Counted from the first letter of the stretch, positions 12,418 to 32,907 are shown. The stretch is DNA of 64,000 nucleotides from a virus (IMGVR_UViG_3300034375_010798); one strand, 5' to 3'. The notes: a model not told the origin generated them from the sequence alone. Numbers and translations: made by a program.

Positions 12418-12428
12418 GAAAATAAAAT

Positions 12429-12881
12429 ATGGCTAAATATAAAAATCTTATTGATGTTGGTAACTTAAACATTGATACTAACACATTAACTATTGATTGT
12501 GTTAACAATAGAGTGGGTGTCGGTGTTGTTGATCCTTCATACAACTTTACTGTAAAATCTCCAGCAACAGGTGATGCAACAATTGCCGCTTTTGTTAATA
12601 ATAATGATGGATTAAATCATGTTTTCGGAAAAGATGCTAGTAATAACGGTTATCAACGAATCTATAACTCAGCTGGCAACGCTTGTGTTCAAATAAACTC
12701 TAGTGGGGATTCTTATATTAATGGAGGTAATTTGGGCATTGGTATATCAAACCCATCATATAATTTAGATGTTACAGGTGATATAAACTTTACAGGAACC
12801 TTAAATCAAAATGGAGTTTCTTTTAATAATGTTGATGATGTCGCATCAATATCAACGGTATTTTTTTTAATGGGAGTATAG
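12429..12881 (+). CDS. Short tail fibre / stalk protein
   Basis: 150 aa; N-terminal MAKYKNLIDVGNLNIDTNTLTIDCVNN shared with 21100 and 27220; one fibre module; hydrophobic C-terminus VFFLMGV. Confidence 0.7.
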   Translation: MAKYKNLIDVGNLNIDTNTLTIDCVNNRVGVGVVDPSYNFTVKSPATGDATIAAFVNNNDGLNHVFGKDASNNGYQRIYNSAGNACVQINSSGDSYINGGNLGIGISNPSYNLDVTGDINFTGTLNQNGVSFNNVDDVASISTVFFLMGV

Positions 12882-12884
12882 ATA

Positions 12885-13223
12885 ATGCCAACAGCATATA
12901 AACCTTTTCACACACAAGGAACTACAGCAGTAACAACTTACGCTACACTTTATAATGTTCCAGCTTCTACTGAATCTGTCATATCAAGTATTGTTGTTTG
13001 TAACACAAACACATCAGCTGCTACATTTAGAGTAGGTATAGATGATACAGCTGGCGATCCGTTAATTACCAATGGTGAGTTTTTAGTATATGATGCTACA
13101 ATTGCGGCGAATGACACAATAACACTTACATTAGGTGTTGCATTAGATGCTGGTAAATATATTAGGGTTTCATCTTCTGAAAATACTGTTTTATTTTCTG
13201 TCTTTGTTTCGGAGATTTCTTAA
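12885..13223 (+). CDS. Small beta-sandwich virion protein, putative fibre adaptor
   Basis: 112 aa; GGAG RBS; TLYNVPAST...ISSIVVCN...YDATIAANDTITLTLG pattern recalled from small structural proteins lying between fibre genes in aquatic phages; TAATG overlap with the next gene. Confidence 0.55.
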   Translation: MPTAYKPFHTQGTTAVTTYATLYNVPASTESVISSIVVCNTNTSAATFRVGIDDTAGDPLITNGEFLVYDATIAANDTITLTLGVALDAGKYIRVSSSENTVLFSVFVSEIS

Positions 13224-16200
13224 TGGGTATAAGTTCTATAAGAAGTAAATATACACCTGCGGGTTCAAATAGAGAAATACAAATTAACGATAACGGTGTT
13301 TTGGGTTCTTCAAGTGGTTTTGTTTTAAATAGTTCTGGTAATGTTGGCATAGGAACGGACATGCCAACAGCACCTTTGCACTTAATTGCAGGAACGCCAA
13401 GTGCATCAGCTGATGCGTTTCATATTAGCGATGGCACTTACACCAACATTGCTATGTATTCTGGTGCTGCTGATGGTGAAATCCGCATTGGCGCGGCTGG
13501 CCAGCTTCGCGGTCGTTATGCTGCGCAATATGCAGGCACTCGCACAGGCCATAATTTTTCATTAGGCACCAACGACACCACGGCAATCACGATTGATAAC
13601 TCACAGCGCGTCGGCATTGGCACGACCGACCCATCTTTCCCTCTTGAAGTTGAGGCAGGCAGTGGTGTTAGTGGTTTGATGGTGGGTGGAACTGCAGGAC
13701 AAGTTGAATTACAGGGTGATGGGCAGGTATACGGTTATCAAAAATTAGACGTAGCATCAGCAGGTTTGCAGATCAAAGGATATTCGGATGGCGGTGGGGC
13801 AAAAACAGAACAAGCCAAAATGTTTTTGACTCAAGAAACCGCAGGTTCAGCAGGTGGTGAGATTAGGTTTTATACAAATGACGGCAGTGCAGTAACTGAA
13901 CGCGCACGCATATATAAGAATGGCGATATACGGTTTATCGGCACAGCTACAGATGCTTTCTACTGGGATGCATCGTCCTCGCGACTCGGCATAGGCACAG
14001 CCTCGCCAGATGGCACTCTGCACATACATACTGGCTCGGCTGGGTCAGTTACTGCCCATGGCTCGGCAGACGATTTAGTTATCGAGCACGCGAGCGATGC
14101 AGGACTGTCAATTCTAACTCCAGCAGCAAATAATGGTCGAATTTATTTCGGATCGCCCACCAATAATGCATACGGCCAGATTGATTACGATCACGCAACG
14201 AACGACATGGTGTTTGCTACCGCTGGAGCTGGTAGGCTAACGCTCAACGCATCTGGCAACATGGGGTTGAACGTAACGCCCAGTGCGTGGCGATCGACCG
14301 AGAGAGCATTACAGATAGATCGTCGTGCGGCTCTTTATGCCGATTCGCACGTTACAACTGCTCTCGCAAATAACTTATTTATTAATAGCTCTGGATACGC
14401 TCTAATAGAGGCAGATGCGGCATCTCAGTATATCCAGTATCAAGGTGAACATATCTGGCAGACAGTGGGTAGTGGATCAGCAGGTGCTAATGTTTCGCCC
14501 TCAACACTCATGACGCTGACTAGTGCAGGCAACCTTTCGATTGATACAGACACTTTATATGTTGACGCAGTTAATGACCGTCTTGGCGTAAACCAAGCTT
14601 TACCTACAGCGTCACTTACAGTGCAAGCGGCACATAACTCATTACACACAATGAAGATTGAAAATGCAGCTGGTAATGTTGTCCAAGAGACTTATATAAA
14701 TGGCGATGGGGATGGAGCTTTAAATATTAGAAACGCAGGTGGTCTTCATAAAATGCAGTTTAGCACCTATGAAGACTCGTTTATTAACGCAGGTTTTAAT
14801 TTAGGCATAGGCACGAACTCGCCAACGACTCTTCTTGAGTTGAATTCATCCTCTGGCCCAGAGATAACAATACAGCGTGATGATACACTGATTGCCGTGG
14901 ATGATTTAGTAGGCGGCATCCGTTTTAGTAGCAATGATGAAAGCATTGCGTTAGGGACACCACCCCATTATGGAGCAGGTATAAAAGTTAAGTCTCAAGG
15001 CACTGTTGGTTATCAAAATATGCTTCTCTACGCAGGACAGAACAATTTGGGATATGAAAACGACACGCCCTCACTGCGGTTAGTGTATAACGGCGATGTG
15101 AATTTTTACGATAACTCGGGTGCCGTTGCCATGAATTGGGATGCGCCAACAACGTCGCTCGGTATACGAACGGCCTCTCCAAACTTTCCTTTACAGGTGA
15201 TGGGAGAGGTTTTTGCAGGAGTGATGCCCGGTTTTGAACAATCTGGTAAATTTTATCTGGGCAGGGGTGACGGAACTGGCACGGATGTTCGTTATCACTA
15301 TATAGAGGCAAATAATTCTACGACAAAAGCAAGTAACTACCTCTCGTTTAACCTCCATACAGGCGCAACCACGACAAGCACTTCTGAACTTTTTCGATTG
15401 GAAGCGGGTCCGGGGTCTGGTGCGGTAAAAACAGTTAACATAGCTTTTAGGGGAAATTCAATTGAAAACTACACTACAGCTACCGACACCGGAAACTTGT
15501 GGGTAAACTATGAAGGATACCAAGGCGGCACAACTTATTTCCGTGATTTTAAAGTCGGCAACGGTAAACAATCGGTTATTGCTTTCTTTGACGGTTCAAG
15601 TGGCAATGTTGGCATTGGAACGGATGTGCCAGATACTTCACTTCATATTTCTGGAAGTGGCACTATTGTAGGTAAGACTGTTTCTACGAATGGATCGGCT
15701 GTTTGGCAAGCTGATTCTATATCTACCGAAGCTTCAATATTATATTTTACTACAGCCGGATCTCAAGCTTGGAAATTTCAAAAAGCTGCTGTTACTGGTA
15801 ATTTAGAAATAAGAAACTCAACTGACTTAACAAAATTTACTATGTTGGATAATGGTAATGTTGGTATAGGTGTAACTTCTCCTCCGTCATTACTAACACT
15901 TAAGGATGGTAATATTCTTTTAGCGCATAGCTCTACAGATGTTGATGGTGGTCACGGAATATTTTTTCACACTACAACTAATAATTGGTCTGAAGCTGCA
16001 GCACACGCTGCAATATATGGTAAAAGAGTAGATGGTAGCAATGGTTATCTTAGATTTGACACAAGAAGTGGTGGAACAACTGCTGAAAGAATGCGTCTTG
16101 ACTCGTCTGGCAATCTTTTAATCGGCTATACATCGTCGAATGGCAGTTACAAGTTACAAGTCAATTCTCAGATTTTTGCTACCAACGCAACTATTGCTAC

Positions 16201-16537
16201 GTCAGACGGACGATACAAAGAGGATGTGCAGACGCTATCCAACGCTACTGATTTAGTTTCGCGCCTCAATCCTGTTCAGTTCAAGTGGAAGGCCCATGAA
16301 ATACACAATTTAGACGTTGGTAAAACGGACGTTGGTTTTATCGCGCAAGAAGTGCAAGAGGTGTTGTCCGATACTGACTACAGTGATTCCGTGGTTGTTA
16401 CTAACAAAACAGACGATGAGGAATATTTGGGATTAGGTGAGACAAAGCTAATCCCGTTGCTGACAGCTGCACTGCAAGAAGCAATCACAAAAATAGAAAC
16501 CCTTGAAACCAAAGTAGCCGCACTGGAATCGGTATGA
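13223..16537 (+). CDS. Tail fibre protein with C-terminal intramolecular chaperone (peptidase S74)
   Basis: 1104 aa; GNVGIGT repeats; TSDGRYKEDV...LNPVQFKWK...GFIAQEV...LTAALQE coiled-coil tail; visibly higher GC than its flanks. Confidence 0.85.
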   Translation: MGISSIRSKYTPAGSNREIQINDNGVLGSSSGFVLNSSGNVGIGTDMPTAPLHLIAGTPSASADAFHISDGTYTNIAMYSGAADGEIRIGAAGQLRGRYAAQYAGTRTGHNFSLGTNDTTAITIDNSQRVGIGTTDPSFPLEVEAGSGVSGLMVGGTAGQVELQGDGQVYGYQKLDVASAGLQIKGYSDGGGAKTEQAKMFLTQETAGSAGGEIRFYTNDGSAVTERARIYKNGDIRFIGTATDAFYWDASSSRLGIGTASPDGTLHIHTGSAGSVTAHGSADDLVIEHASDAGLSILTPAANNGRIYFGSPTNNAYGQIDYDHATNDMVFATAGAGRLTLNASGNMGLNVTPSAWRSTERALQIDRRAALYADSHVTTALANNLFINSSGYALIEADAASQYIQYQGEHIWQTVGSGSAGANVSPSTLMTLTSAGNLSIDTDTLYVDAVNDRLGVNQALPTASLTVQAAHNSLHTMKIENAAGNVVQETYINGDGDGALNIRNAGGLHKMQFSTYEDSFINAGFNLGIGTNSPTTLLELNSSSGPEITIQRDDTLIAVDDLVGGIRFSSNDESIALGTPPHYGAGIKVKSQGTVGYQNMLLYAGQNNLGYENDTPSLRLVYNGDVNFYDNSGAVAMNWDAPTTSLGIRTASPNFPLQVMGEVFAGVMPGFEQSGKFYLGRGDGTGTDVRYHYIEANNSTTKASNYLSFNLHTGATTTSTSELFRLEAGPGSGAVKTVNIAFRGNSIENYTTATDTGNLWVNYEGYQGGTTYFRDFKVGNGKQSVIAFFDGSSGNVGIGTDVPDTSLHISGSGTIVGKTVSTNGSAVWQADSISTEASILYFTTAGSQAWKFQKAAVTGNLEIRNSTDLTKFTMLDNGNVGIGVTSPPSLLTLKDGNILLAHSSTDVDGGHGIFFHTTTNNWSEAAAHAAIYGKRVDGSNGYLRFDTRSGGTTAERMRLDSSGNLLIGYTSSNGSYKLQVNSQIFATNATIATSDGRYKEDVQTLSNATDLVSRLNPVQFKWKAHEIHNLDVGKTDVGFIAQEVQEVLSDTDYSDSVVVTNKTDDEEYLGLGETKLIPLLTAALQEAITKIETLETKVAALESV

Positions 16538-16549
16538 GGAGAATAGACA

Positions 16550-16612
16550 ATGGCTTACCAAGGCAATGCCGAAACTAGTGATGTTCATACCCAAGTATTA
16601 AGATTAATGTAA
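16550..16612 (+). pseudogene. Vestigial 20-codon gene start (MAYQGNAETSDVHTQVLRLM)
   Basis: Strong GAGGAG RBS overlapping the previous stop codon; MAYxGN resembles a common phage fibre N-terminus; the frame closes where the sequence returns to AT-rich composition. Confidence 0.45.
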
Positions 16613-16629
16613 ATAAAAGGATATAAAAA

Positions 16630-19600
16630 ATGGCAATAAATAGCTTATCAACATTAACAGAGTTTCCTTCTTTATGGTCTCAAAATGGAACTTCAATTTA
16701 TTATAATTCTGGAAATTTGGGAATAGGGTTAAGTAATCCGGGATTTAACTTAGATGTTGTTGGGGATATAAATTTTAGTGGTGATTTGTTGCAAAATGGT
16801 GTTGTTATGACCTTTGGTCAGTTTGACACAGATGGTGACGGAACTAGTATTGTTTATAATAATGGTGGTGAGGTTGTATTAGATAAAATAAGAAGTAATA
16901 CTTTAGGTGATGGTGTTTTTACTATAAGAGATTGCACAAACTCTACAGGAAAGTGGCAAAATAGAATAGGAACTGATGATTCGTATAATTTAGATTATTA
17001 TAATGGTTCATCTTGGTCAAACTGTGTTTTTGTTGACACTATTGGATTAAATGTAAACGCAACATCTGGGGAAAGATTATCTATAAGAAATGCTAGTGGC
17101 ATATCAAATAATGAAGATTTAGGTGGTGTTTCTTGGATGCAAGAAGGTAGCACTGGAACTGTTGTTGGTAATATTTTTATGTTGGGTGATTCCGATGGAG
17201 GAACAACAGGAAGAGGTAAAATGTTTTTTGGAGTTAGAGGTAATGACTCTAATCAAAGTGCAATATGTCAAATGTCATTAGATAGTTTTGGTAATGTAAA
17301 TATAGGTGGTAATTTTAATTCTTCTAGTAAACTTTATGTTGGTAAAACATCTTGGGGTATAAATGAAGCAAATCCTCTTGTAAACTTTGCTGTAACTGCC
17401 TCTGGAACGAACGGAAGTGGGTCTTATACAAGTAGAATAATGAAACTATATAGTGATGGATCATTCACTTCAGAGGTAGACAATGATGATAATATAATAG
17501 GTTTAGAAATAGAGATGGATGTTACTGGGCCTGTTAATAAAATACCGTTACGAATTACTGGTGATAACAATTATAATTATGATTTTACCTCTCAAAGCAA
17601 TGGGGTTACACCCGGAACAAGATTAGATATGTTTGTTGGTTCAAGTGCTGGTGATTTTTCTTTTAGTAATTCTGGTGGAGAGTTATTAAGAATAAAGGGA
17701 AGTGGTAATGTTGGCATAGGCACGGACTCGCCAGAGCATACTCTGCATGTAAGAGGTTCGGGCAACGGTGCAGTTATTGAAGTTGAAGATACGGCAGCTA
17801 ACGGAAACCCTGTGTTCCGATTGAAAAACGATGCACAAGAATGGCAGTGGCAGTTGAGAGGTGCAGAGTCTGATTCGCTTGTAGCGTGGGACGTTACGGG
17901 GGTTACAGGTCGGCTTTATTTAACCACAGCGGGCAATTTGGGATTGGGTGCGTCCTCGCCAGTTAATTTTTCAAACCAGACTTCTCTTACAGTAAATGGA
18001 ACATCAGTAGGACGAGTAGACGTAAAAGCTAGTGGGAGCGGTGGCGGTGCAATGTTTGGAACATCGTCAGCATTAACAATGCAAGCTAATTCTGGCGTAG
18101 CATTAAATTTAGACTCCGCATCTGGACAGCCTATTACGTTTCAAGTTGGTAGTAGTGAGAAGGCACGCATCACGAGCGCAGGCGTTATGCAAGTGGGTGG
18201 TCAAACAGGCACATTGAAGTTGGGCAACGATGGAACGTATCATGGGACGATTGAATGGGAATACGCAAACAACGAATTAGCGCACACCATCAACAATGTT
18301 GGAGTTCATACGTTTAATACAAACGGTAAAGAAGTGGCGCGATTTACTCAATCTACTTCTAATTCGGGTGGATTAATTCTTAAAAGCAATGCAGGGAATG
18401 ATCTCATCGCTATGGGGGCAGAGGGTTCTGGTGGTAATGAGGAAAATGGTTTCATTGCAGGTTATCAGAATGGGACACAAAAATTTTCAATCGGTGCAAC
18501 AACAGGTCCGACATGGTTTAATACAGGCCAAAATTTTGGCATAGGCACGGACTCGCCTTCATATCCCTTACATATAGCTAGATCGGCTGGATCGACCTGC
18601 ACACTATTAAATCTCCAATCTTGCACAAACAGTTCAGAGGGAAATAGAGTTCAACTGGCTTTTTCAAGCCAAGTCGCACTTGATAGTCAAACACGGATTA
18701 ATGCAGCTATTGATTCTATAACCCACAGTGTCGCCTATTCCCATTACGGTGATTTAGCATTTCTTACTATGAATGCAGCAGTCCTTACTGAAAAAATGAG
18801 AATAACTAGTGATGGTAAGGTTGGCCTTGGTAGTAATGCACCAGTTTACTTATTTGATATGGGAAGTGGGAACGCAAGAAATATTAGAGTTGGAACTAGA
18901 ACATTTATTGGAAGTGGATATTCCGGATCATCAACTATACTAGGTTATAATGTAATAGCGGATGAGTCAACAACAGCGACTAATAGAATGATTATTACAG
19001 AAACATCAACTGGCAATGGTTTGCCAGCCGCTATTAATATGTTTGCTGGAAATATGGAGTTTCATACAGCTCCTTCGGGAACAATAAATGATGAAATGTC
19101 ATGTCTTAGGCTTAGAATTATTAATGCTGGAACTGTGGAGATTTATAATGCAGCAGATCCAGATGGAACAGAAGATTCTTTAAGAATATATGCACAAGAT
19201 GGAGATAGTAGATTTACAGTAGGTAATAATGGAGCAAACCATAGTGCTGTAATGAAACTTTCAAACAGCACCGGAGCTATTACTCATTGTCTAAACTCTC
19301 ATGGTGGTATTGCTTGTCATAATGGATGTGTAATATCACCTACAGTTTGTGGATCAACTATAGTGAAAACAAAAACTCTTTGTGTTTGCGAAGGAACGTT
19401 GGCGGCGAGCCACCCAAGAGTTTTACTTAATATGGATGCTTGCAAAACTGATGTGGGAAGTGAAACTGCAACTTGTTTTAGAGTATCGGTTAATGCAGAT
19501 AATAATTGTTCTATAATATACACCGGTGATACTGCTAATAATCCAGCAGTTTTATGCACAACTGCGGCACACTTTAGAGCATGTGGACCTATTGGAACTC

Positions 19601-21084
19601 AATCTTGTTTTTGTGGAAAACAAATTGTTTTATGTCAAGAAGGCACAGGCAATGAAATGTTAGCATGTTTTACAAGACACAATAGTGGGAATGCTGATAA
19701 TCACTTCCATAAAATAGATGTAAATCCGGATAATAATTTAGTTACGTTAACCTCTAGTGGAACTAATGCTGGTGGTTATTGTATGTTTTGTTATGTAAAC
19801 TCTAATTGTTTTACTGCAAGTGTTATTGTTAAAGGCCCGATTTTATGTGCAACTACACAGGTTACAGCGCCTCAAGGTTTCTTTTCATCAGCTACTATAC
19901 CTCTTGCTATCCAAGATCCCGGTGTAGCTACGTATTACTGGTGTTTCCCTAACAATGATACTGTATCTTTTCATCCTAACACTACATCTACAAAAACTCT
20001 TTATTTCTGTAACGCTGGAACTGGATCTATGAACGTTTGTGTTGAAGGGTGTGTAAAAACTCCTGTTTTTTGTGCAACTAGTTGTTCTTATATTGGCGAA
20101 TCACGTATGGGTGCAGGTTTCTCTACATACACAAACGATGGTTTGTTTAGTAGTGATGCAAGACCTTCTTCTATGGGTCTTCCTAATGGATCAGAAATGA
20201 TATTTGGTTATTACTCTGCCGGGAATGGCTTTTATTGGGGTCGTGTGGCTCATAGATCGCATGTTGACAGTCTGGGTGTATATGGGTCGTCTGGTTCTAT
20301 ATATTGTCAATCATGGGGCGCACGCAGTGCCAACGTTTTTACTGTAGAAATAGCAGGAACTGATAGATTAAAGGTTGATGCTAATGGTGTGTGTATTATT
20401 GGTCATTTAAATTCTAATCCAACGGGATTGTATAATGTTGTATTAGGGCCAAATAATTTTGGTAACTCAACAACAGGTTCAACTAGTAATGTTGTTGTTG
20501 CGGATGGTGCGGCGTTGGGTGTTACAGATACAGACAATAGTGTTTTTATTGGGAAAGGATCTGGTGGCGTAAGTGGGATAAATACAGAATTGCAAACAGG
20601 AACTGGTAATGTTTTTATTGGTTACGGCGCAGGCCCAGATGCGGCTGCATCTAATTATCAAGTTGTTATTGGTGGTGATTATGCTGTTGGTAAAGGCAGC
20701 CAGACCTCTTTCTTGGCCCCTAGCTCCGGAGCTTATCAAGGAAACAATTCTGCATCTTGGTCAACTACATCTGATGAAAGATTAAAAAAGAATATTGTTG
20801 ATAATTATCAAGGGATAGAGTTAATAAGTCAAATTAGAGTAAGAAATTTTGAGTATAGATTAGAAGATGAAATAGATGATGAGTTTAAACAACAAAAGAT
20901 ACAAAGAGAAGGTATTCAAATAGGTGTTATAGCTCAAGAGTTACAAGAAATATTCCCAGACGCAGTAACAGAAAAATCAAGTGGTTTGTTGTCTGTAGAT
21001 AATGATGAGTTGTTTTGGTATATGATAAATGCAATAAAAGAACTTAACGATAGAGTAGAACAATTAGAAAACCAAACACAATAG
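16630..21084 (+). CDS. Tail fibre protein with Cys-rich segment and C-terminal peptidase S74 chaperone
   Basis: 1484 aa; GNxGIG repeats; TSDERLKKNI...GVIAQEL...INAIKELN C-terminus; 25 Cys in 266 codons at 19288-20085. Confidence 0.85.
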   Translation: MAINSLSTLTEFPSLWSQNGTSIYYNSGNLGIGLSNPGFNLDVVGDINFSGDLLQNGVVMTFGQFDTDGDGTSIVYNNGGEVVLDKIRSNTLGDGVFTIRDCTNSTGKWQNRIGTDDSYNLDYYNGSSWSNCVFVDTIGLNVNATSGERLSIRNASGISNNEDLGGVSWMQEGSTGTVVGNIFMLGDSDGGTTGRGKMFFGVRGNDSNQSAICQMSLDSFGNVNIGGNFNSSSKLYVGKTSWGINEANPLVNFAVTASGTNGSGSYTSRIMKLYSDGSFTSEVDNDDNIIGLEIEMDVTGPVNKIPLRITGDNNYNYDFTSQSNGVTPGTRLDMFVGSSAGDFSFSNSGGELLRIKGSGNVGIGTDSPEHTLHVRGSGNGAVIEVEDTAANGNPVFRLKNDAQEWQWQLRGAESDSLVAWDVTGVTGRLYLTTAGNLGLGASSPVNFSNQTSLTVNGTSVGRVDVKASGSGGGAMFGTSSALTMQANSGVALNLDSASGQPITFQVGSSEKARITSAGVMQVGGQTGTLKLGNDGTYHGTIEWEYANNELAHTINNVGVHTFNTNGKEVARFTQSTSNSGGLILKSNAGNDLIAMGAEGSGGNEENGFIAGYQNGTQKFSIGATTGPTWFNTGQNFGIGTDSPSYPLHIARSAGSTCTLLNLQSCTNSSEGNRVQLAFSSQVALDSQTRINAAIDSITHSVAYSHYGDLAFLTMNAAVLTEKMRITSDGKVGLGSNAPVYLFDMGSGNARNIRVGTRTFIGSGYSGSSTILGYNVIADESTTATNRMIITETSTGNGLPAAINMFAGNMEFHTAPSGTINDEMSCLRLRIINAGTVEIYNAADPDGTEDSLRIYAQDGDSRFTVGNNGANHSAVMKLSNSTGAITHCLNSHGGIACHNGCVISPTVCGSTIVKTKTLCVCEGTLAASHPRVLLNMDACKTDVGSETATCFRVSVNADNNCSIIYTGDTANNPAVLCTTAAHFRACGPIGTQSCFCGKQIVLCQEGTGNEMLACFTRHNSGNADNHFHKIDVNPDNNLVTLTSSGTNAGGYCMFCYVNSNCFTASVIVKGPILCATTQVTAPQGFFSSATIPLAIQDPGVATYYWCFPNNDTVSFHPNTTSTKTLYFCNAGTGSMNVCVEGCVKTPVFCATSCSYIGESRMGAGFSTYTNDGLFSSDARPSSMGLPNGSEMIFGYYSAGNGFYWGRVAHRSHVDSLGVYGSSGSIYCQSWGARSANVFTVEIAGTDRLKVDANGVCIIGHLNSNPTGLYNVVLGPNNFGNSTTGSTSNVVVADGAALGVTDTDNSVFIGKGSGGVSGINTELQTGTGNVFIGYGAGPDAAASNYQVVIGGDYAVGKGSQTSFLAPSSGAYQGNNSASWSTTSDERLKKNIVDNYQGIELISQIRVRNFEYRLEDEIDDEFKQQKIQREGIQIGVIAQELQEIFPDAVTEKSSGLLSVDNDELFWYMINAIKELNDRVEQLENQTQ
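17711..18557 (+). repeat. 22-bp exact direct repeat TTGGCATAGGCACGGACTCGCC flanking an 825-bp in-frame cassette
   Basis: Copies at 17711-17732 and 18536-18557; the enclosed DNA uses more GC-ending codons than its flanks. Confidence 0.9.
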
Positions 21085-21099
21085 AATAAGAGTAATAAT

Positions 21100-24000
21100 A
21101 TGGCCAAGTATAAAAATTTAATAGATATTGGTAATTTAAATATTGATAACAACACACTAACTATTGATTGTGTTAATAACAAAGTTGGCATAGGCACGTC
21201 CGAGCCAACAGCCACTTTAACAGTGGCTGGCCCAAACACTCAAACAAGTCTGGGCGGACCAAATGCACTCAATATTATGGATGGCAATGCTGACAACGAG
21301 TTTGTCACCTTGAATTTTCAAACGGGTGCAGGTGGCCCCTTAGCCGCTATAGGCGCAAAAGCTATTACTACTGGCGTGTATCCCAACACCGTTGGTGAGT
21401 TGCATTTTGCCGTCCAAAAAGGCGCCGCACGATTCACCGCTATGGTTATCGACGAGGATCGACAAGTCGGCATAGGCACGTCAGTTCCCGAAACAAGATT
21501 ACACATCGGTGGGACATCACAATTTATAAAAATGGATTCTGGAGCAACTACTCATTTGTATTTGGGTGGTGAAAATGATTTTTTTGCTCTATCTCACAAC
21601 AGACACCCATCGACTGGAGTGATTGATAACGCTGCTTGTGGTGTAGGTGTAATACAATACGAAAACGCAGTTGGGTGGTCATTTTCCGCAAATACAGGTG
21701 GAGCATTTACTAATCGTATGGTTATACTTAATGATGGCAATGTCGGCATAGGAACGACCTCGCCATCTTCATATTCTGCAGACGCTCGCAATTTAGTCGT
21801 TGCTTCAAGTGGTAATGGTGGGGTGACGATAAAATCTGGAACAACTTCTACGGGTAATATCTTTTTTGCGAACGCTGAAGCATCTGCCTCAAACAATGGC
21901 ATAATCCAGTATAACCACAACACTAAAGAGTTTAGATTTGACAATTACGGAACCAATCAGTTTTACAGTTTTAATATACAGAACAGTGAAAAAATGAGAA
22001 TAACTTGTGCTGGTGATGTTGGCATAGGTAGATTTACCAACTTGCAAGGTAAGTTAGATGTTGATGGTGATTTAAGAGTAACAAGGGAAATCGCAGCTAA
22101 CACCGCTTGGGAAATGATTTCTTTGGGTAGTGATAGAGGTATAGATGATTATGGTGGTTTATATAAAGATTATTGGAGAATAAATGTTGTAACTCCCGGA
22201 CCCACAACCACTGGGGAATCTGATGATCATAGATTTGGTGACTTGCGTTTTTCTGGTGTTACGGGAGCTAACACCACTTACGCAGACAGAATGACGATAA
22301 GATACAATGGCAGGGTTGGTGTAGGTGTTAAGGTTCCAGAAGCTACTTTTCATGTTGAAAGATCGTCCGGAACTACGGAGTATATAGCTAAATTTAAAAA
22401 CTCAACAACAGCTACTCCATATACTGTGTATATTCAAGAACCATCTGGTGCAGCCACTGGATATCCATTATTAAATGTGGCAAGCGGTGATGGATTAACA
22501 TCCTTTCTTCGTATAAATTCTGGCAATGGTCATGTTGGTATAGGTAAATCTCCATCACTAACATATGGAACAGATATAGTTGGTGATGTTAATATAACTG
22601 GAACTTATTATATTAACGGATCACCTTTTGCTGGAGGAGCCAGTCAATGGAGCACTACTGGATCTGATATATATTTTTGGAATCAAGTTGGAATAGGGAC
22701 TGACACAATAGACTCTCAAAATATACTACACTTAAAAGACGCAACAAATGGATATGTAGGTATAAGAATGGAGGGTAGTGGCTCTTATAATCACAATTGG
22801 TCTATATATGCTAGTGGCGATGGATCAGGTAATGAATTCTTAGGTATTTATGATGCAACTCAAAACTTATATAGATTTCAAGTTAATGAACTCGGCAATA
22901 TTGCAATAGGAGTTACTCCTAATGAAAATTGGCTTACCTCATGGCGAGTAATTGAGATAGGGGCAGGTAGTGGATTAGGTGGAACTATTTTTACCAACAA
23001 CGGAGGAGTTTCTGGTCAGATAGGTATAGGTCAAAACTGGTATTATAATCAGAGTGATGGAAATAACAAGTATGTTTATACTGCTCCAGCAAGCGATTAT
23101 ATTCAATATAATGGAACTCACCAATGGAGATCAGCTCCCTCTGGAACATCGGGTAACAATGTAACCTTAACACAAAAAATGTTTATAAATTCTGATGGAT
23201 ATGTTGCAATAGGTAATCATAGCCCATTAGCTCTTCTTCATCTATTGGGATCTTCTGAAGCTTCTAACACCGAAATCAGAATTGAACATAGTCCTTCTTC
23301 AGGCTCCGCCACTTCGAATATTCGTTTTAAGCGCGATGGCGCAGATTTTGCATATGTTGGAGGCGCTGCAGCTAGTATTAGCGGAGCCAGTTTAACGGAT
23401 TTAGGGTTATCTGTTCCGAGTGGAAAGAATATTATTTTTGGAACGAACACGACGGAAAGAATGAGAATAACTAGTTCTGGTCTTGTTGGCATTGGCACTG
23501 ATGATCCAAAAGCTTTATTAAATATTAGAAAAGGAACTGGTGGAACTGACCCTTCTTACGCAGCAGATGATTTGCTTATATTAAGAAATAACACAGCCTC
23601 TGGAGATGGGGCACGCATTAGTATAATAGCAGGTCTTATATCTGATGCCACTATAGGGTTTGGTGATGAAGATTTAAGAGATGCAGGCAGAATAGTTTAT
23701 AATAATATTAATAATTGTTTGAGATTTGGAACAGCAGGTGTTGATGATCGCATGACAATAGATAACACTGGTAAGGTTTATATTAGAACTGGTGGTTTAT
23801 ATCTTGATGGTTCAAATAATTTATATTTAGGTGACACCTCTGTGAATGGAGCTGCTGCTATTAACCTTCAATCAACAAACAGCAATACTAACTGGCAAAT
23901 AAGACAAAACAATGTTGTTGCTGGTGATTTAACTATTACACCATCAACAGCTGTTGGCGGAACTACATTTACAACGCCAACAATGTCTTTTGTTGATAAT

Positions 24001-26960: not shown

Positions 26961-27218
26961 ATGTTTGAAAAAATAATTAAGGTTGATTCTATAGAAATTA
27001 TTGGTGATTATAAAATAATACAATACAGAATTGCAACTATAGTTTTAGAGGATAACAAACAAATATCAAAAACATTTCATAGAAATACTATTGCTCCAAA
27101 TCATGATTTACAAGAAATACCTAAAGAAGTAAAAGATATAGCTATGTTTGTTTGGACAGATGATATAAAATCATTATATAAATTACATTTAGAAGATGTA
27201 AATAATTCTAAGGTATAA
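26961..27218 (+). CDS. Putative tail fibre assembly chaperone / tip-associated protein
   Basis: 85 aa; GGAG RBS; VDSIEI...IQYRIATIVLED...SKTFHR...VWT pattern typical of small genes following YEEGxWTP-type fibres. Confidence 0.55.
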   Translation: MFEKIIKVDSIEIIGDYKIIQYRIATIVLEDNKQISKTFHRNTIAPNHDLQEIPKEVKDIAMFVWTDDIKSLYKLHLEDVNNSKV

Positions 27219-27219
27219 T

Positions 27220-30200
27220 ATGGCCAAGTATAAAAATTTAATAGATATTGGTAACCTAAACATTGATAACAATACATTAACTATTGATTGCGTTAACAAT
27301 AGAGTGGGTGTCGGTGAGGTTAACCCAACACTTAGTTTACACGTAAATTCTGGAGCAGGAAATCAAGTTGCAACATTTGAGTCATCTGATGTTGATGCTT
27401 ATATTAACATAAAAGATAGTGCTGGTAACGCTACTATTGGAACTCGTAGTGGTGATATGACATTTTATATTGATGATGCATTCACAGAAGCTATGAGGAT
27501 AAAAAATGATACTAGTGTTGGTATAGGAACCACCGCTGTTGCTTCTGGATACAAACTTACTACAAGCGGATCAGTTTTTGTAAACGCAGGTGGAGGGACC
27601 GGTATTACTATTAATGGTGCTGCAGGTGGCAATCGTATTCTTAGGTTTCACACCGGAGATATTTCCTCTAATAGTATTAGATGGGGGTTAGCGGCAAACG
27701 GCACCACCGAATCCGGGTTAGATGCAGGATCAGATTTTGGAATATATAGATATGATGACGCCGGATCTTATATATCAGAAGCGTTAACTATTAAAAGATC
27801 TACAGGTAATGTTGGGTTAAATTGTGCCACTCCACCAGCATCATTATCAATTAATGCAGGAAATAGACCAGATCAAGACGCAGTATATATTGTAGGAACG
27901 CCCGATGATGGAAAGTCAATTTTATGCATAAGATCTAATCACACTAGCGGAGCTACAAAAAGATTAATTCATGTTACAAGATCTGGAAAAGAAGGATTGT
28001 TTGTTGTTAACAATAGTGAGGCCGTAGGCATAGGAACTACAGAACCTTCAAAGAAGCTTGAAATCTCTAATGCTCGTTCAGAAACTAATTTTTCAACAAA
28101 CGCCAATGTATTTTTCTCTCTAGAAAACGATAACACCACAGTAAATAACTTTGCATCAATGCAATTTCACGATGGATCTGGGCTTGGTTCGGCTTATATT
28201 GGAACGAGATTTCTAAGAACAAATAAGGGTGGTGATTTATTTTTCGCAACAAGATATGATGCGACTGGAAGTGCCGCCATAAGAATGACAATTAATGATG
28301 CTGGTTTGGTTGGTATAGCTAATGAAAACCCATCATATACATTAGATGTAACAGGTAACATAAATTTTACCGGTAATTTAACTCTTAATGGTTCTGTTTA
28401 TGGCGGAGCTAGTGGTTTTTGGACATCTAATGTGAACGATATATACTATACAGCTGGTGGTATAGCGATTGGAACATCAACACCTACAGCGGCCAAACTT
28501 ACTATAGTAAATAACACTTCAACAGCATATGCAAATGTTGCTCCTAATATAAGTGATTTTGGGTTAGTAATTAGTAATAATGTAAATCATGTTTCAGGCG
28601 GGGTGTTTTCTGGATTACAGTTTAATCAAACTGGTAATAGCCAAAATAGAATCACATACATTGGAGCAATAACAGAAGATACCAATCAGCACAGTTCATT
28701 AGTTTTTGGAACAGATAGTGGTGGTTCGGGTAGAACTGAAAAAATGAGAATAAATAGTGCTGGTAATGTTGGTGTTGGAACAAATAATATTGTTGATCAC
28801 GCAAGTTTTAGTAGAGCGTTGGTTGTTAATGGACCTAGTGGTGGTGCTATATATGTTAAAGACAATGATAGTTCAACAGATGTTGGTGTATTTGGTCAAA
28901 CTAATACTTGCACATACATAGAGAATCTTGCAGTTGGGCCAATAAGGTTTTACATTTGTAATGGTTCTGATTTTAGCGAAAGGATGAGAATAACATCAAG
29001 TGGAACACTTGCTGTTGGAACAGAAACACCATCAGCACATGCCTTATTGAAAGCAGATTTTGCAGGAGACTTACTGTTATCTACTGGAACAACATCAACG
29101 CTTTATTTACAAGACACAACCAACTGGTTACAGTTAATATCTGGTGATATGAGATTTGGGTTATCATCTGATGAAAAGATGAGAATAACTAATGGTGGCA
29201 ATGTTGGTATAAATAACAGCTCACCTTCAACAAATGCTGTTATCCATGCAGTAGGCACAAGCTTTACTGGTGCTTCTGGAGCTATAATACTTGAAGATAA
29301 ACGTGCAGATGCGAACCCATACATCGCAATAGAGAACGACGCACGAGTCTATCAATTACAAACAGTAGGTGCGCGGGATGATAATTTTGAGATATTGGAT
29401 TCTACAGCAGGATCAGTGCGATTGGCTGTAACTTCGACTGGTGACGTTGGCATAGGTTCTACAAATCCCACATCTAAACTTTATGTGAGTGGAAATATAT
29501 ATGGTGAAAATCTATTATCAAGAAATACTTACATAAACAAATCTTACAGTAGTGATTATAATTTTTCTTTATATCCAGAATTAGCTGATGGTAATATTAG
29601 ACCGGAGGTTTTAGAATACTCAAGTGCTAATTCAGCGAATGTAACTTATGGAAATACAAATGAAAGTGATGCGCCCTATGCTGAATATTTTGCAACAGAC
29701 GGTAATCTTACTTTGTGTGGAGCTAAGATACCGGTTTGTGCTGGAGAAAGTGTTTATGGTGAAGTTTGGGTTAAGAGAGCTAGTGGAGCTACAGGAACAG
29801 CTGGGGATCTTTACTTTGGCGTTGTTAGAGAAGATAAAGATTGCAATCCTATTTCAACAAACGCTGGTATTATATATTTTGTATCTGCAGAAACAATACC
29901 TACAGATGGTGTTTGGCATAAATATTCTGGAAATTTGACACTACCCACATCACATACACCCTTTAATGGTAGTGATGGCGGGCCAGTAAGATATATAGAA
30001 CCACATTTATTAGTTAATTACTCAGCTGGCACAATACCTACTTGTGTTTCTAATATTATAGTAAGAAAAACAAATATTAATAGTGATTCTGGTCCGGCAA
30101 ATATTTTAGGTAATGTCGGCATAGGAACCGAATCACCCCTGCTTAAACTGCACATACAGGGTGATGTTGCTGGAGGTAGTTACAATCAGATCTCCGGGCA

Positions 30201-32907
30201 AGTTGTCATAAGTGGTGATACTAATACAAACAAACGCCTAAATATTGGTTTTGACACATCTACTGATAAGGGATTTTTGCAAGCGGGTATTAACGGAACT
30301 GGTTATAATGATTTATTATTAAACCCCAACGGTGGTAATGTTGGCATAGGTGTAACAGGACCTAGCCGCGCACTACATATTAAATCATCTAATGAAACAA
30401 CCTTTGCTGTTCCTTCAACAATTATGATAGAAGGAACAGATAGCTATAACTCTGGAACAGCTGGCGCTGGTATAATATTTCTTGGTAAGTATGATAGTCT
30501 TTCTAACGCAACTACCTTTGGTGTTATAGGAGCTGTAAAGGAAAACACAGTTGATGCTAACTATGGTGGTGCATTAGTTTTTCACACAAGAATAAATGGG
30601 GGTTTAGGCGATGAAAGATTACGTATTAATTCCGCCGGTAATGTTGGCATAAACGAAACCAATCCCGTTACTCAACTTCACGTTTCTTCTTATGCTGGAA
30701 TAGGTAAAATACGATTAGAAGATGATGCTGGTAGAACGGTAGAAATACAAAGCCCAAGTAGTGGTGCGGATAATGGTAGAATAGGAACTATAACAAACCA
30801 CGATTTTGAAATACACGCCGGTAATGGTAATGGAACAAACTTTATACGTTTCCTTACTGACAACGATGAAAAAATGAGAATAACTAATGCTGGTTTTGTT
30901 GGCATTAATATGGTGGAACCACCCCGTCAATTATCAGTTTTGGGTGAGGGAAATGCTACTGTCGCAACTATTATAACTCCATCTACAAATGGAGGTAATT
31001 TCGGCATATTAGATTTAAAAAGACAAGACAATGCAGTTAATTCTTCTATAGGTGTTCGTTTTAGTCACGGAAACAGCGCAGATGTAACTAATGATATAGA
31101 ATATGGTTTCATAGGTGGTGGTATAGAAGTTTGCACTGCCGGTTCAGAAAAGGGGTTTTTAAATTTTGCAGTTGGGCCAGCGCGAACAGAATATATGAGA
31201 ATAACTGGTGATGGTGACGTTAGTATAGGTGGTAACACTACACCATTAGCCAGACTTCATGTTGCTGATGAATACAGCTCCGATAGTGATATTGCTTATT
31301 TTGAAAACACACACAGCGATGGCGGAGCATTTCTTACAATAAAGCAATATGAAACAACTGCACAGCCTGTGCGCTCAGCAGCGATAAGATTAGGGACAAA
31401 AGGAAGTATAATCTGGTATCAAGGTATATTGCGTAGAGGTGGTAGCGATCACTTCAACACATGGTCTTTGAATACAACAAACGATAATAATACATCAGAA
31501 GCAAAATTTGCTGTAACAACAGGTGGTAATGTTGGCATAGGTGAAACTAGGCCTCCATCATTACTAACACTTAAGGGTGGTAATATTCTTTTAGAGCATA
31601 ACTCTACAGGAGCTGATGATGGTCACGGAATATTTTTTCACACTACAACTAATAGTTGGTCTGAAGCTGCTGCACACGCTGCAATATATGGTAAAAGAGT
31701 AGATGCTAGTAATGGTTATCTTAGATTTGACACAAGAAGTGGTGGAACAACTGCTGAAAAAATGAGAGTAACTAGTGCTGGCAATCTTTCTGTAAATGAA
31801 GCATACAACACCGCTTTTACGAATACTTCGGGCACTGCAAGATATATTGGTGTAGCATCTAATAATAATGACGCTTTATTTATAGCTCACTCTTCTGGTC
31901 AAGGTGTTGGTTATTTTGGTTATGATTATAGTGCTGATAGATTGATTATAGCTACTGATAACGGAGCTGGAGGAAACTCTATACAATTTTCAGTTAATGC
32001 AGGCACTACAAGTAATGGAACTGGTGATAACCTTGCCGCAGCGACTGCCGCTATGATCATTCTCGCTAATGAAAATGTCGGCATAGGAACGGACGCGCCA
32101 AGCTTTCGTCTTACCGTTCACGGTTCTTCTGGTTCTGATGGGGATTTTAACGGATATAATGGCACCACTACTGGCACTTTCCGACCAAATGGTTTCCTCC
32201 CAGATTTGATGGTATGTAGACCTTATACTGGATTCAGTGGTGGTGGAAATACATTAAGAGGACATATGGCATTCGGCGACGGTGTTGGTATTTATTCCGT
32301 CAACCCTAATACGGGAGGAAGTTCTCTTTATGGTGATATAAGGTTTTATACTTCGGTTTATGGATCAGGAAGTAGTTATTGCGCTATAGATAGAATGACT
32401 ATAACCTGTGATGGTGAGGTTTGTGCTCATAAAACTATAGTAACACCAAAATTGGAGGTTAATGGTGATATATATCAAAACGGTGACACTTTTTATGAAA
32501 CAAACAGTTTTACACCAACAATTGTCGCGAGCACTAGTAACCCAACAGTAGGATATTCAGTTCAATATGGTAGATATACTAGAATAGGTAATTTAGTAAC
32601 AGTGCAAATAAAAATTGATATATCAAGTATCTCTGGTGGCAGCGGTCAATTGAGAATTGGGGGTCTGCCATTTACATCAAATACTGATGCCAACTACCGA
32701 TCCGCGGGTATATCTTCTTTCACAAGAGGGTTTAATAACGGTGGGGGGGCAATTACTCTAAACATAGGGCCAAATACAACAGAAGCTGGTTTGTATAGAT
32801 GGACTGATAGCAGTAATTTTGACACAGAACTAGCTCCTGCAGATATTTCTTCTGTTCCAGCTACAATCCATGCAAGTCTTACATATGAGGCTAATTCTTG
32901 GACATAA
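27220..32907 (+). CDS. Long tail fibre protein
   Basis: 1895 aa; MAKYKNLID anchor; many GNVGIG / EKMRI modules; a carbohydrate-binding-like insert around 29520-30090; C-terminal FTP...GRYTRIGN...GLPF tip domain. Confidence 0.85.
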   Translation: MAKYKNLIDIGNLNIDNNTLTIDCVNNRVGVGEVNPTLSLHVNSGAGNQVATFESSDVDAYINIKDSAGNATIGTRSGDMTFYIDDAFTEAMRIKNDTSVGIGTTAVASGYKLTTSGSVFVNAGGGTGITINGAAGGNRILRFHTGDISSNSIRWGLAANGTTESGLDAGSDFGIYRYDDAGSYISEALTIKRSTGNVGLNCATPPASLSINAGNRPDQDAVYIVGTPDDGKSILCIRSNHTSGATKRLIHVTRSGKEGLFVVNNSEAVGIGTTEPSKKLEISNARSETNFSTNANVFFSLENDNTTVNNFASMQFHDGSGLGSAYIGTRFLRTNKGGDLFFATRYDATGSAAIRMTINDAGLVGIANENPSYTLDVTGNINFTGNLTLNGSVYGGASGFWTSNVNDIYYTAGGIAIGTSTPTAAKLTIVNNTSTAYANVAPNISDFGLVISNNVNHVSGGVFSGLQFNQTGNSQNRITYIGAITEDTNQHSSLVFGTDSGGSGRTEKMRINSAGNVGVGTNNIVDHASFSRALVVNGPSGGAIYVKDNDSSTDVGVFGQTNTCTYIENLAVGPIRFYICNGSDFSERMRITSSGTLAVGTETPSAHALLKADFAGDLLLSTGTTSTLYLQDTTNWLQLISGDMRFGLSSDEKMRITNGGNVGINNSSPSTNAVIHAVGTSFTGASGAIILEDKRADANPYIAIENDARVYQLQTVGARDDNFEILDSTAGSVRLAVTSTGDVGIGSTNPTSKLYVSGNIYGENLLSRNTYINKSYSSDYNFSLYPELADGNIRPEVLEYSSANSANVTYGNTNESDAPYAEYFATDGNLTLCGAKIPVCAGESVYGEVWVKRASGATGTAGDLYFGVVREDKDCNPISTNAGIIYFVSAETIPTDGVWHKYSGNLTLPTSHTPFNGSDGGPVRYIEPHLLVNYSAGTIPTCVSNIIVRKTNINSDSGPANILGNVGIGTESPLLKLHIQGDVAGGSYNQISGQVVISGDTNTNKRLNIGFDTSTDKGFLQAGINGTGYNDLLLNPNGGNVGIGVTGPSRALHIKSSNETTFAVPSTIMIEGTDSYNSGTAGAGIIFLGKYDSLSNATTFGVIGAVKENTVDANYGGALVFHTRINGGLGDERLRINSAGNVGINETNPVTQLHVSSYAGIGKIRLEDDAGRTVEIQSPSSGADNGRIGTITNHDFEIHAGNGNGTNFIRFLTDNDEKMRITNAGFVGINMVEPPRQLSVLGEGNATVATIITPSTNGGNFGILDLKRQDNAVNSSIGVRFSHGNSADVTNDIEYGFIGGGIEVCTAGSEKGFLNFAVGPARTEYMRITGDGDVSIGGNTTPLARLHVADEYSSDSDIAYFENTHSDGGAFLTIKQYETTAQPVRSAAIRLGTKGSIIWYQGILRRGGSDHFNTWSLNTTNDNNTSEAKFAVTTGGNVGIGETRPPSLLTLKGGNILLEHNSTGADDGHGIFFHTTTNSWSEAAAHAAIYGKRVDASNGYLRFDTRSGGTTAEKMRVTSAGNLSVNEAYNTAFTNTSGTARYIGVASNNNDALFIAHSSGQGVGYFGYDYSADRLIIATDNGAGGNSIQFSVNAGTTSNGTGDNLAAATAAMIILANENVGIGTDAPSFRLTVHGSSGSDGDFNGYNGTTTGTFRPNGFLPDLMVCRPYTGFSGGGNTLRGHMAFGDGVGIYSVNPNTGGSSLYGDIRFYTSVYGSGSSYCAIDRMTITCDGEVCAHKTIVTPKLEVNGDIYQNGDTFYETNSFTPTIVASTSNPTVGYSVQYGRYTRIGNLVTVQIKIDISSISGGSGQLRIGGLPFTSNTDANYRSAGISSFTRGFNNGGGAITLNIGPNTTEAGLYRWTDSSNFDTELAPADISSVPATIHASLTYEANSWT

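Follow-up and report, generated by a model that had tools for sequence, protein, structure and literature searches.

Apparent module exchange at conserved linkers in a mosaic tail-fibre gene of an uncultured myovirus

The GC-rich centre of tail-fibre gene C, which lies in a 64,000-nt window of the viral record IMGVR_UViG_3300034375_010798, is best explained (with a probability of about 85%) by modules that were swapped in at conserved linkers by ordinary recombination, in a modular fibre of the S74 type. This is tail-fibre mosaicism of an ordinary kind, seen here with unusually sharp breakpoints and a series of alleles, and it involves no new mechanism. The features are collected in Table 1.

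Gene C and its neighbourhood

The source record, an uncultured IMG/VR contig of 109 kb, comes from a myovirus without a close relative in culture. The fibre ORFs match the PHROG tail-fibre families 9942 and 18345, and the tail sheath, baseplate hub and baseplate wedge are encoded downstream of them. The Pfam search of gene C showed the Peptidase_S74 chaperone domain and nothing beyond S74, and the S74 region of MyRF was matched weakly in addition; the same chaperone also ends the upstream gene B (13223-16537). Between alleles, gene C is conserved over its N-terminal 357 aa and again from about aa 729, with a hypervariable centre. No match to the gene was obtained by megablast among 50,697 phage records, and tblastn of the central cassette against the same records gave weak partial matches only. 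The ESM Atlas search returned only unnamed clusters.

The identical 1484-aa protein (P0001) was found on eight contigs from three sources (JGI, ENA and Logan), and a one-substitution variant is present on another contig. These copies bear on whether the gene might be a metagenome assembly chimera, with contigs misjoined at the repeated linker. Such an artefact could be suspected in an uncultured IMG/VR contig with repeated linkers; however, the recurrence of the same protein and a reading frame that is intact throughout leave it with hardly any credibility. Moreover, 22 bp is shorter than the k-mers or reads that assemblers normally use across repeats. In the cluster of P0002, one 26-kb contig has the gene split into two predicted proteins, P0007 and P0008 (662 and 818 aa), which suggests a frameshift or a stop in that copy.

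Table 1. Coordinates of the features in and around the centre of gene C (positions counted from the first base of the window).
Feature	Position	Strand	Basis
Tail-fibre gene C	16630..21084	+	ORF, 1484 aa (P0001); PHROG tail-fibre families; allele alignment
Linker copy 1 (VGIGTDSP), holding the first 22-mer (17711-17732)	17710..17733	+	Motif scan; comparison with L062
Replacement segment, allele-specific, GC-rich, 1055 nt, M1-M4	17733..18787	+	Homology gap against L062; GC3
M1, about aa 369-436	17734..17937	+	75.5% DNA identity to L006; protein relatives
Internal linker (LGLGASSP) between M1 and M2, start of the L005-like patch	17938..17961	+	Motif scan; ungapped displays
M2	17951..18171	+	221 nt, 95.5% DNA identity to L005
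Linker half (EKARITSAG), L005-like/L004-like junction in the shared CGCATC ("ARI")	18157..18183	+	Ungapped displays
M3	18163..18557	+	80.5% DNA identity to L004 (IMGVR_UViG_3300025889_018766)
Linker copy 3 (FGIGTDSP), holding the second 22-mer (18536-18557), M3/M4 junction	18535..18558	+	Motif scan
M4, predicted β-helix unit, about aa 644-719, 2 Cys, GC3 0.31	18559..18786	+	Protein relatives; structure model
Linker copy 4 (TEKMRITSDGKVGLGSNAP)	18787..18843	+	Homology to every sister allele restarts; alignments
Peptidase_S74 intramolecular chaperone domain, C-terminus of gene C, aa 1381-1447	20770..20970	+	Pfam PF13884, E 2.9e-12

Several other observations concern the same fibre region. The part of gene C at about aa 880-1150 (19300-20100) is very Cys-rich and is conserved in all alleles. 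It contains a second in-frame indel of 75 codons (19837-20061), which is flanked by TGTGCAACTA (PILCAT... and PVFCAT...); the indel sequence is present in the window and in the sister allele L062, and is absent from P0004 and P0005. P0003 is without a larger stretch of the Cys region (about aa 997-1147). Genes B and E have a 241-nt module in common (15853-16093 and 31524-31764, 93% identity). Positions 1-187 of L062 are 100% identical to the window at 15907-16093 and then diverge exactly at 16093, at an ERMR linker; therefore the end of gene B is also allele-specific. Further GC-rich patches are found in genes B and D (13300-15500 and 21150-21900), each of which starts at a GIGT linker, with GC3 values up to 0.42, the maximum of the window. 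These patches probably share their origin with the patch in gene C. A 144-nt stretch occurs at 12423-12566, 21094-21237 and 27214-27357 in copies that are 68-79% identical, and L062 has it too, after its copy of gene C. It spans the starts of the ORFs at 12429, 21100 and 27220, whose products begin with ...DCVNN-VG-G, and it is probably a shared attachment domain.

An exact repeat within a family of linkers

The 22-mer TTGGCATAGGCACGGACTCGCC occurs in two exact copies on the plus strand, both within gene C and 825 nt (275 codons) apart, as the first-pass annotation had reported; search and ORF translation gave the same result. Dinucleotide-preserving shuffles produced no chance match to it. 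Its codons GGC (Gly), ACG (Thr), GAC (Asp) and TCG (Ser) are rare in the window, where they account for 13.7%, 6.8%, 17% and 4.4%, respectively, of the codons for their amino acids, so that this part of the annotation was also borne out by the codon counts. Translated in frame, the copies give VGIGTDSP and FGIGTDSP.

The pair belongs to a much larger family. A protein-level scan with [VILF]G[VIL][GN] found 50 in-frame copies in six tandem ORFs (8491-32907), usually in the context E-x-MRITS-x-GNVGIGT-x-x-P-x-x-x-LHV. When the 50 coding copies are compared in pairs, the numbers of mismatches are distributed continuously, with one pair at 0, two at 2 and twelve at 3. When up to three mismatches were allowed, copies of the 22-mer with 2-3 mismatches were found at 13344, 13986, 14802 and 32078. 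Under a column-independent model, 0.05 exact pairs are expected among the 14 GIGTxxP copies. The exact 22-mer pair is the extreme of a motif family and not a unique site, and its identity is mildly unusual. Given the expected number of pairs, these two copies may be more closely related to each other.

Outside the window, the pattern GTTGGCATAGGCACNNNNTCNCC gave 59 sites on 55 IMG/VR contigs, all in frame as VGIGTxSP, and the exact 20-mer core was absent from IMG/VR outside the window's own record. Paired linkers were also observed elsewhere. For example, L083 (5476-6017) has an exact 23-mer linker pair with 519 nt between the copies, L068 and L072 have 23-mer pairs with one mismatch at 666 nt, and L082 has a linker-DNA pair at an in-frame spacing of 507 nt. 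A literature search on the motif string found nothing relevant.

Codon usage within the motif is biased in the window, where GGC encodes its first Gly in 26 of the 50 copies against a background of 13.7% (p 1e-10); 12 of these 26 sit in AT-rich surroundings. Among 45 independent loci the bias was weak (25 observed, 18 expected, z 1.9); GGC as a universal DNA signal was rejected, and the bias is specific to the lineage of the window. The bias is read here as a product of shared ancestry or of gene conversion within the module pool.

Limits and alleles of the replacement segment

The DNA enclosed by the repeats has a GC content of 0.46 and a GC3 of 0.36, compared with 0.164 in the upstream flank, 0.193 in the downstream flank and 0.203 (sd 0.057) as the background of the window; similar GC3 values are reached only in parts of genes B and D. 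The interior has no Cys, whereas 3 Cys are encoded upstream and 28 downstream (beyond aa 720). The first-pass annotation had described the interior as GC-richer than its flanks and Cys-free, and compositional foreignness is supported from the first 22-mer onward. The repeats were also taken as the bounds of the foreign DNA, which does not agree with the data on the right side. Between 18535 and 18786 the GC3 is still 0.31, and the foreign composition passes the second 22-mer and continues to about the next linker. The whole replacement segment has GC3 values of 0.31-0.43 against 0.16-0.19 in the flanks.

Comparison with L062 gave the same limits. The window and L062 are 96.2% identical in nucleotides over 16599-17732 and 98.3% identical from 18788; in between, the replacement segment corresponds to an unrelated stretch of 530 nt in L062, which is GC-rich too. 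On the left, the homology ends with the final base of the first 22-mer, and linker copy 1 itself is part of the conserved backbone, present in L062 with one synonymous difference. On the right, the homology resumes at the following EKMRITSDGKVGLG linker (18788), not at the second 22-mer. Since both the foreign composition and the gap against L062 extend past 18557, the foreign segment is not delimited by the repeats and includes the second 22-mer.

A search with the AT-rich N-terminal part against 5.8 billion proteins revealed four allele clusters (1484, 1180, 1377 and 1556 aa) that are 96-100% identical in this part, and a metagenome scan added one further allele, L062 (1308 aa). The alleles are alike as far as ELLRIKG (aa 357) and once more beginning at the GLGS-AP-YLFDMG linker (about aa 729); in between, each of them is different. 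The flanks of all five are 96-98% identical, and the central modules differ. Some of the differences are blocks that run from linker to linker, as determined at the protein level for P0003, P0004 and P0005. A module of about 85-100 aa that lies between two DGNVGI copies in P0004 and P0005 is absent from P0003, whose junction reads ...IKGDGNVGI-NQNNP...; P0005 has 179 extra aa between two VGIG copies at the place where P0004 reads ...SSGKVGIG-VNPQARLHV.... These comparisons support the view that blocks are gained or lost in frame by linker-to-linker events in the gene family.

The exact, in-frame direct repeats around compositionally foreign DNA had led the first-pass annotation to propose that an 825-bp circular module had entered by one crossover at an att-like site of 22 bp, with attL/attR copies left behind and an excisable fibre switch as the result. 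This is now very improbable. The repeat is a protein linker with about 50 copies and near-copies at four further sites, and the foreign segment ends at 18787 rather than 18535. Within the 825 bp there are three modules whose nearest relatives differ and which occur together only in the window's own 90% cluster. An allele with a single 22-mer would be 1209 aa long; it was found neither among the five types nor in the near-length and shorter-protein searches of the 5.8 billion proteins, and the sister alleles all have other modules at this place. Tyrosine and serine recombinases (PF00589 and PF00239) were not found in the 109-kb record, which is estimated to cover about 40% of the genome. The window allele is identical on its eight contigs, and nothing points to a switch. 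Recombination between the two copies had also been suggested; in-frame linker-to-linker indels do occur in the sister alleles, but no deletion from 22-mer to 22-mer was found. Two other known systems were rejected as well. An invertase switch does not agree with repeats that are direct and a record in which no recombinase was found. A diversity-generating retroelement does not agree with an identical 22-bp repeat without adenine-specific differences, and no reverse transcriptase (RVT_1, PF00078) was found in the same 109-kb record (about 40% of the genome).

Mosaic origin of the modules

The centre of gene C has no single relative: in the search of the large protein database, it was covered in full only by the window's own 90% cluster. 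Separate relatives were found for M1 (aa 347-445), M2 (423-535), M3 (502-649) and M4 (635-738). The protein relatives of M1 (P0015, P0016 and P0023-P0027) are 64-82% identical to it. M1 and M2 occur together in P0016, and in P0015 M1 and M3 are separated by about 255 aa. The M4 protein is 80% identical to P0019 and about 60% identical to P0030, and it is absent from all sister alleles. At the DNA level, L006 matches the window over 17702-17889, and M2 has its close match in L005, an unrelated phage contig (IMGVR_UViG_3300006802_001000). The homology between M3 and L004 stops exactly where the second 22-mer ends. The first-pass annotation had treated the insert as one cassette; in other phages, separate contigs match separate parts of it, and the 825 bp is never one unit outside its own cluster. 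The contigs with related modules have GC3 values of 0.25-0.58, in keeping with the base composition of the patch.

Ungapped displays against L006, L005 and L004 placed the breakpoints at 17702, 17951, about 18167 and 18557, all inside linkers. Together with the two limits against L062 (17732 and 18788), all six DNA breakpoints are in linkers, as are the protein junctions of P0003, P0004 and P0005; breakpoints taken from alignment ends tend to move toward the far edge of any conserved motif.

Two other origins of the repeat pair were considered. The first is that a fibre repeat was recently duplicated in tandem within the gene, with the 22-mers as the remaining identical ends; in its favour, M1 and M4 are distant paralogues (30% identical over 100 aa). 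However, the modules show no DNA similarity to each other outside the linker, and each of them is closer to relatives in other phages than to anything within gene C, so that a duplication is practically excluded.

The second is a special case of module exchange at linkers, in which M1-M3 were inserted at one ancestral linker directly before M4 by two crossovers within linkers. Both junction linkers would then be templated from one recipient copy, which would explain their exact identity. The left copy is of the backbone type, with one difference in L062, whereas the right copy follows L004 up to GGCATAGGCAC and thereafter has the backbone version and not that of L004. An exact pair is also a rare outcome under the motif-family expectation (0.05), and the sister alleles show both filled and empty linker-to-linker states. 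On the other hand, no allele in the data joins the N-terminus directly to M4. M4 itself is foreign in composition, is missing in L062 and is not obviously ancestral, and GIGTDSP may simply have been present in the actual donor of M3. An insertion at a single linker is therefore unlikely, although it keeps some weight; if it took place, the 22-mer pair could mediate a rare, precise in-frame deletion.

Predicted fold and fibre class

A profile was built from 48 linker-to-linker units of the window and other viral contigs, and it matched four solved fibres of Bdellovibrio: Bd2133 (8OND, E 9e-27), Bd1334 (8OML, E 2e-16), Bd3182 (8OJN, E 2e-11) and Bd2439 (8OL4, E 5e-7). The linker was aligned in each of these matches, e.g. 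SERMRIDTSGNLGLGTAAPTSALHV, and VGIGTDSPxxxLH was aligned to loops of Bd2133, Bd1334 and Bd3182. A single-sequence AlphaFold prediction of aa 341-757 reached a pLDDT of 37 and was set aside, and the model from the 48-unit alignment was used. The AlphaFold monomer model of the M4 unit, which follows the second 22-mer, has a pLDDT of 79.5 and is similar to a β-helix domain of Bd3182 (8OJN; Z 8.6 over 104 of 116 residues; Foldseek E 1e-5). Residues 1-116 of the model align to Bd3182 655-771, a region that holds the capping loops 656-669 and 752-765.

The domains of the MAT fibres are intertwined trimeric β-helices with "capping loops" at their edges, which share a V-G-..-P-x-x-x-L consensus (Caulton et al. 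2024, PMC10769870). The consensus is printed there as V-G-G/N-pi-x-x-P-x-x-x-L, and the linker motif described here has one residue (I) more. Because the profile, the model and the published loops agree, the 22-mer is predicted to encode the core of the capping loop that starts each β-helix module. The profile and model matches indicate that the linker is the capping loop between trimeric β-helix domains of S74-type fibres, and by predicted structure the product of gene C belongs to the S74/MAT β-helix fibre class. In this class, the fibre is an intertwined homotrimer and its chaperone is released autoproteolytically.

Discussion

According to the preferred reading, in which modules are exchanged at linkers, the gene C fibre is built from predicted β-helix modules that are each bounded at both ends by a linker, and the 22-mer is a GC-rich codon version of the linker core that is common to several copies in this genome. 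Because the linker is conserved in the protein and partly in the DNA, it offers short stretches of homology in the same frame for recombination. Crossovers at the linkers, between phages infecting the same cell or between paralogues among the fibre genes, could swap, add or remove whole modules while the frame and the fold register are kept. The replacement segment probably arose in this way, with four linker-joined modules from GC-richer phages, and the two identical 22-mers are the first and the third of five linker sites in and around the patch. Homologous or short-homology recombination is the likely mechanism, and the modules would be expected to alter the length or the binding of the fibre. 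Loss of the DNA from one 22-mer to the other is plausible, and the resulting fibre would be well formed; there would be no route back after such a deletion, and therefore the pair would not be a switch.

It is more speculative, and improbable, that the linker DNA, with its GGC bias at the first Gly, is maintained as a dedicated in-frame splice site, that the tandem cluster is a programmed system for cassette shuffling, and that the pair marks a recent insertion guided by a linker and is still precisely excisable. If this is true, fibres of different lengths would occur within one population.

Module exchange at linkers gives the gene a wider interest. The breakpoints show, at base-pair resolution, where fibres of this widespread class (trimeric by predicted structure) are cut and rejoined, namely at the capping loop between β-helix domains. 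Moreover, the different module sets of five alleles on one backbone, together with the 221-nt patch with 95.5% identity to an unrelated phage, appear to be a clear natural example of a recent exchange of host-range modules among uncultured phages.

Integron cassettes (attC/attI) and the invertible tail-fibre segments of Mu and P1 (Gin/Cin/Hin) likewise have short repeats around an exchangeable coding segment of a host-range gene. In contrast to these systems, no recombinase was found in the record of gene C, the direct repeats encode a structural motif with about 50 copies, and the segment is a mosaic from several sources for which no alternative state was found.

The T-even phages are closer in the way the exchange would work. 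Passages of Trojet et al. (2011, PMC3157838), which refer to Tetart et al. (1996, 1998), describe, for the genes of the distal tail fibre and the adhesin, short conserved motifs between variable segments in gp37 and glycine-rich motifs in gp38, and natural and laboratory exchanges in or next to these motifs that gave chimeric fibres with new combinations. As in the gp37/gp38 system of these passages, conserved motifs alternate with variable segments in gene C, and the breakpoints are in or next to the motifs. The motif and the fold are unrelated, and there is no sequence homology (gene C matches S74 only in Pfam, and the PHROG families are other ones). Whole predicted β-helix domains of 75-140 aa are exchanged in gene C and the number of modules varies, whereas the exchanged parts in the T-even passages are loops. 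By this analogy, the likeness between gene C and T-even motif recombination appears to lie in how it works and not in homology.

The MAT/S74 fibres of Bdellovibrio (Bd3182, Bd2133, Bd1334 and Bd2439; PDB 8OJN, 8OND, 8OML and 8OL4) are the closest in architecture, and the stalks of the L-shaped fibre of phage T5 and of the K1F endosialidase are related to fibres of this type. Both the MAT fibres and gene C have a C-terminal Peptidase_S74 chaperone, repeated β-helix domains (predicted in gene C) with an ERMRIT..GNVGIGT..P..LHV linker or capping loop at the edges, and a chimeric domain make-up. Unlike the MAT fibres, those described here are tail fibres of an uncultured myovirus, encoded by five or six tandem paralogues with products of up to 1937 aa. 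The comparison ties a structural motif of the Bdellovibrio fibres to a putative recombination joint: the loop is treated in PMC10769870 as a structural motif and not as a joint of recombination, whereas the breakpoints and the allelic series are visible here at the DNA level.
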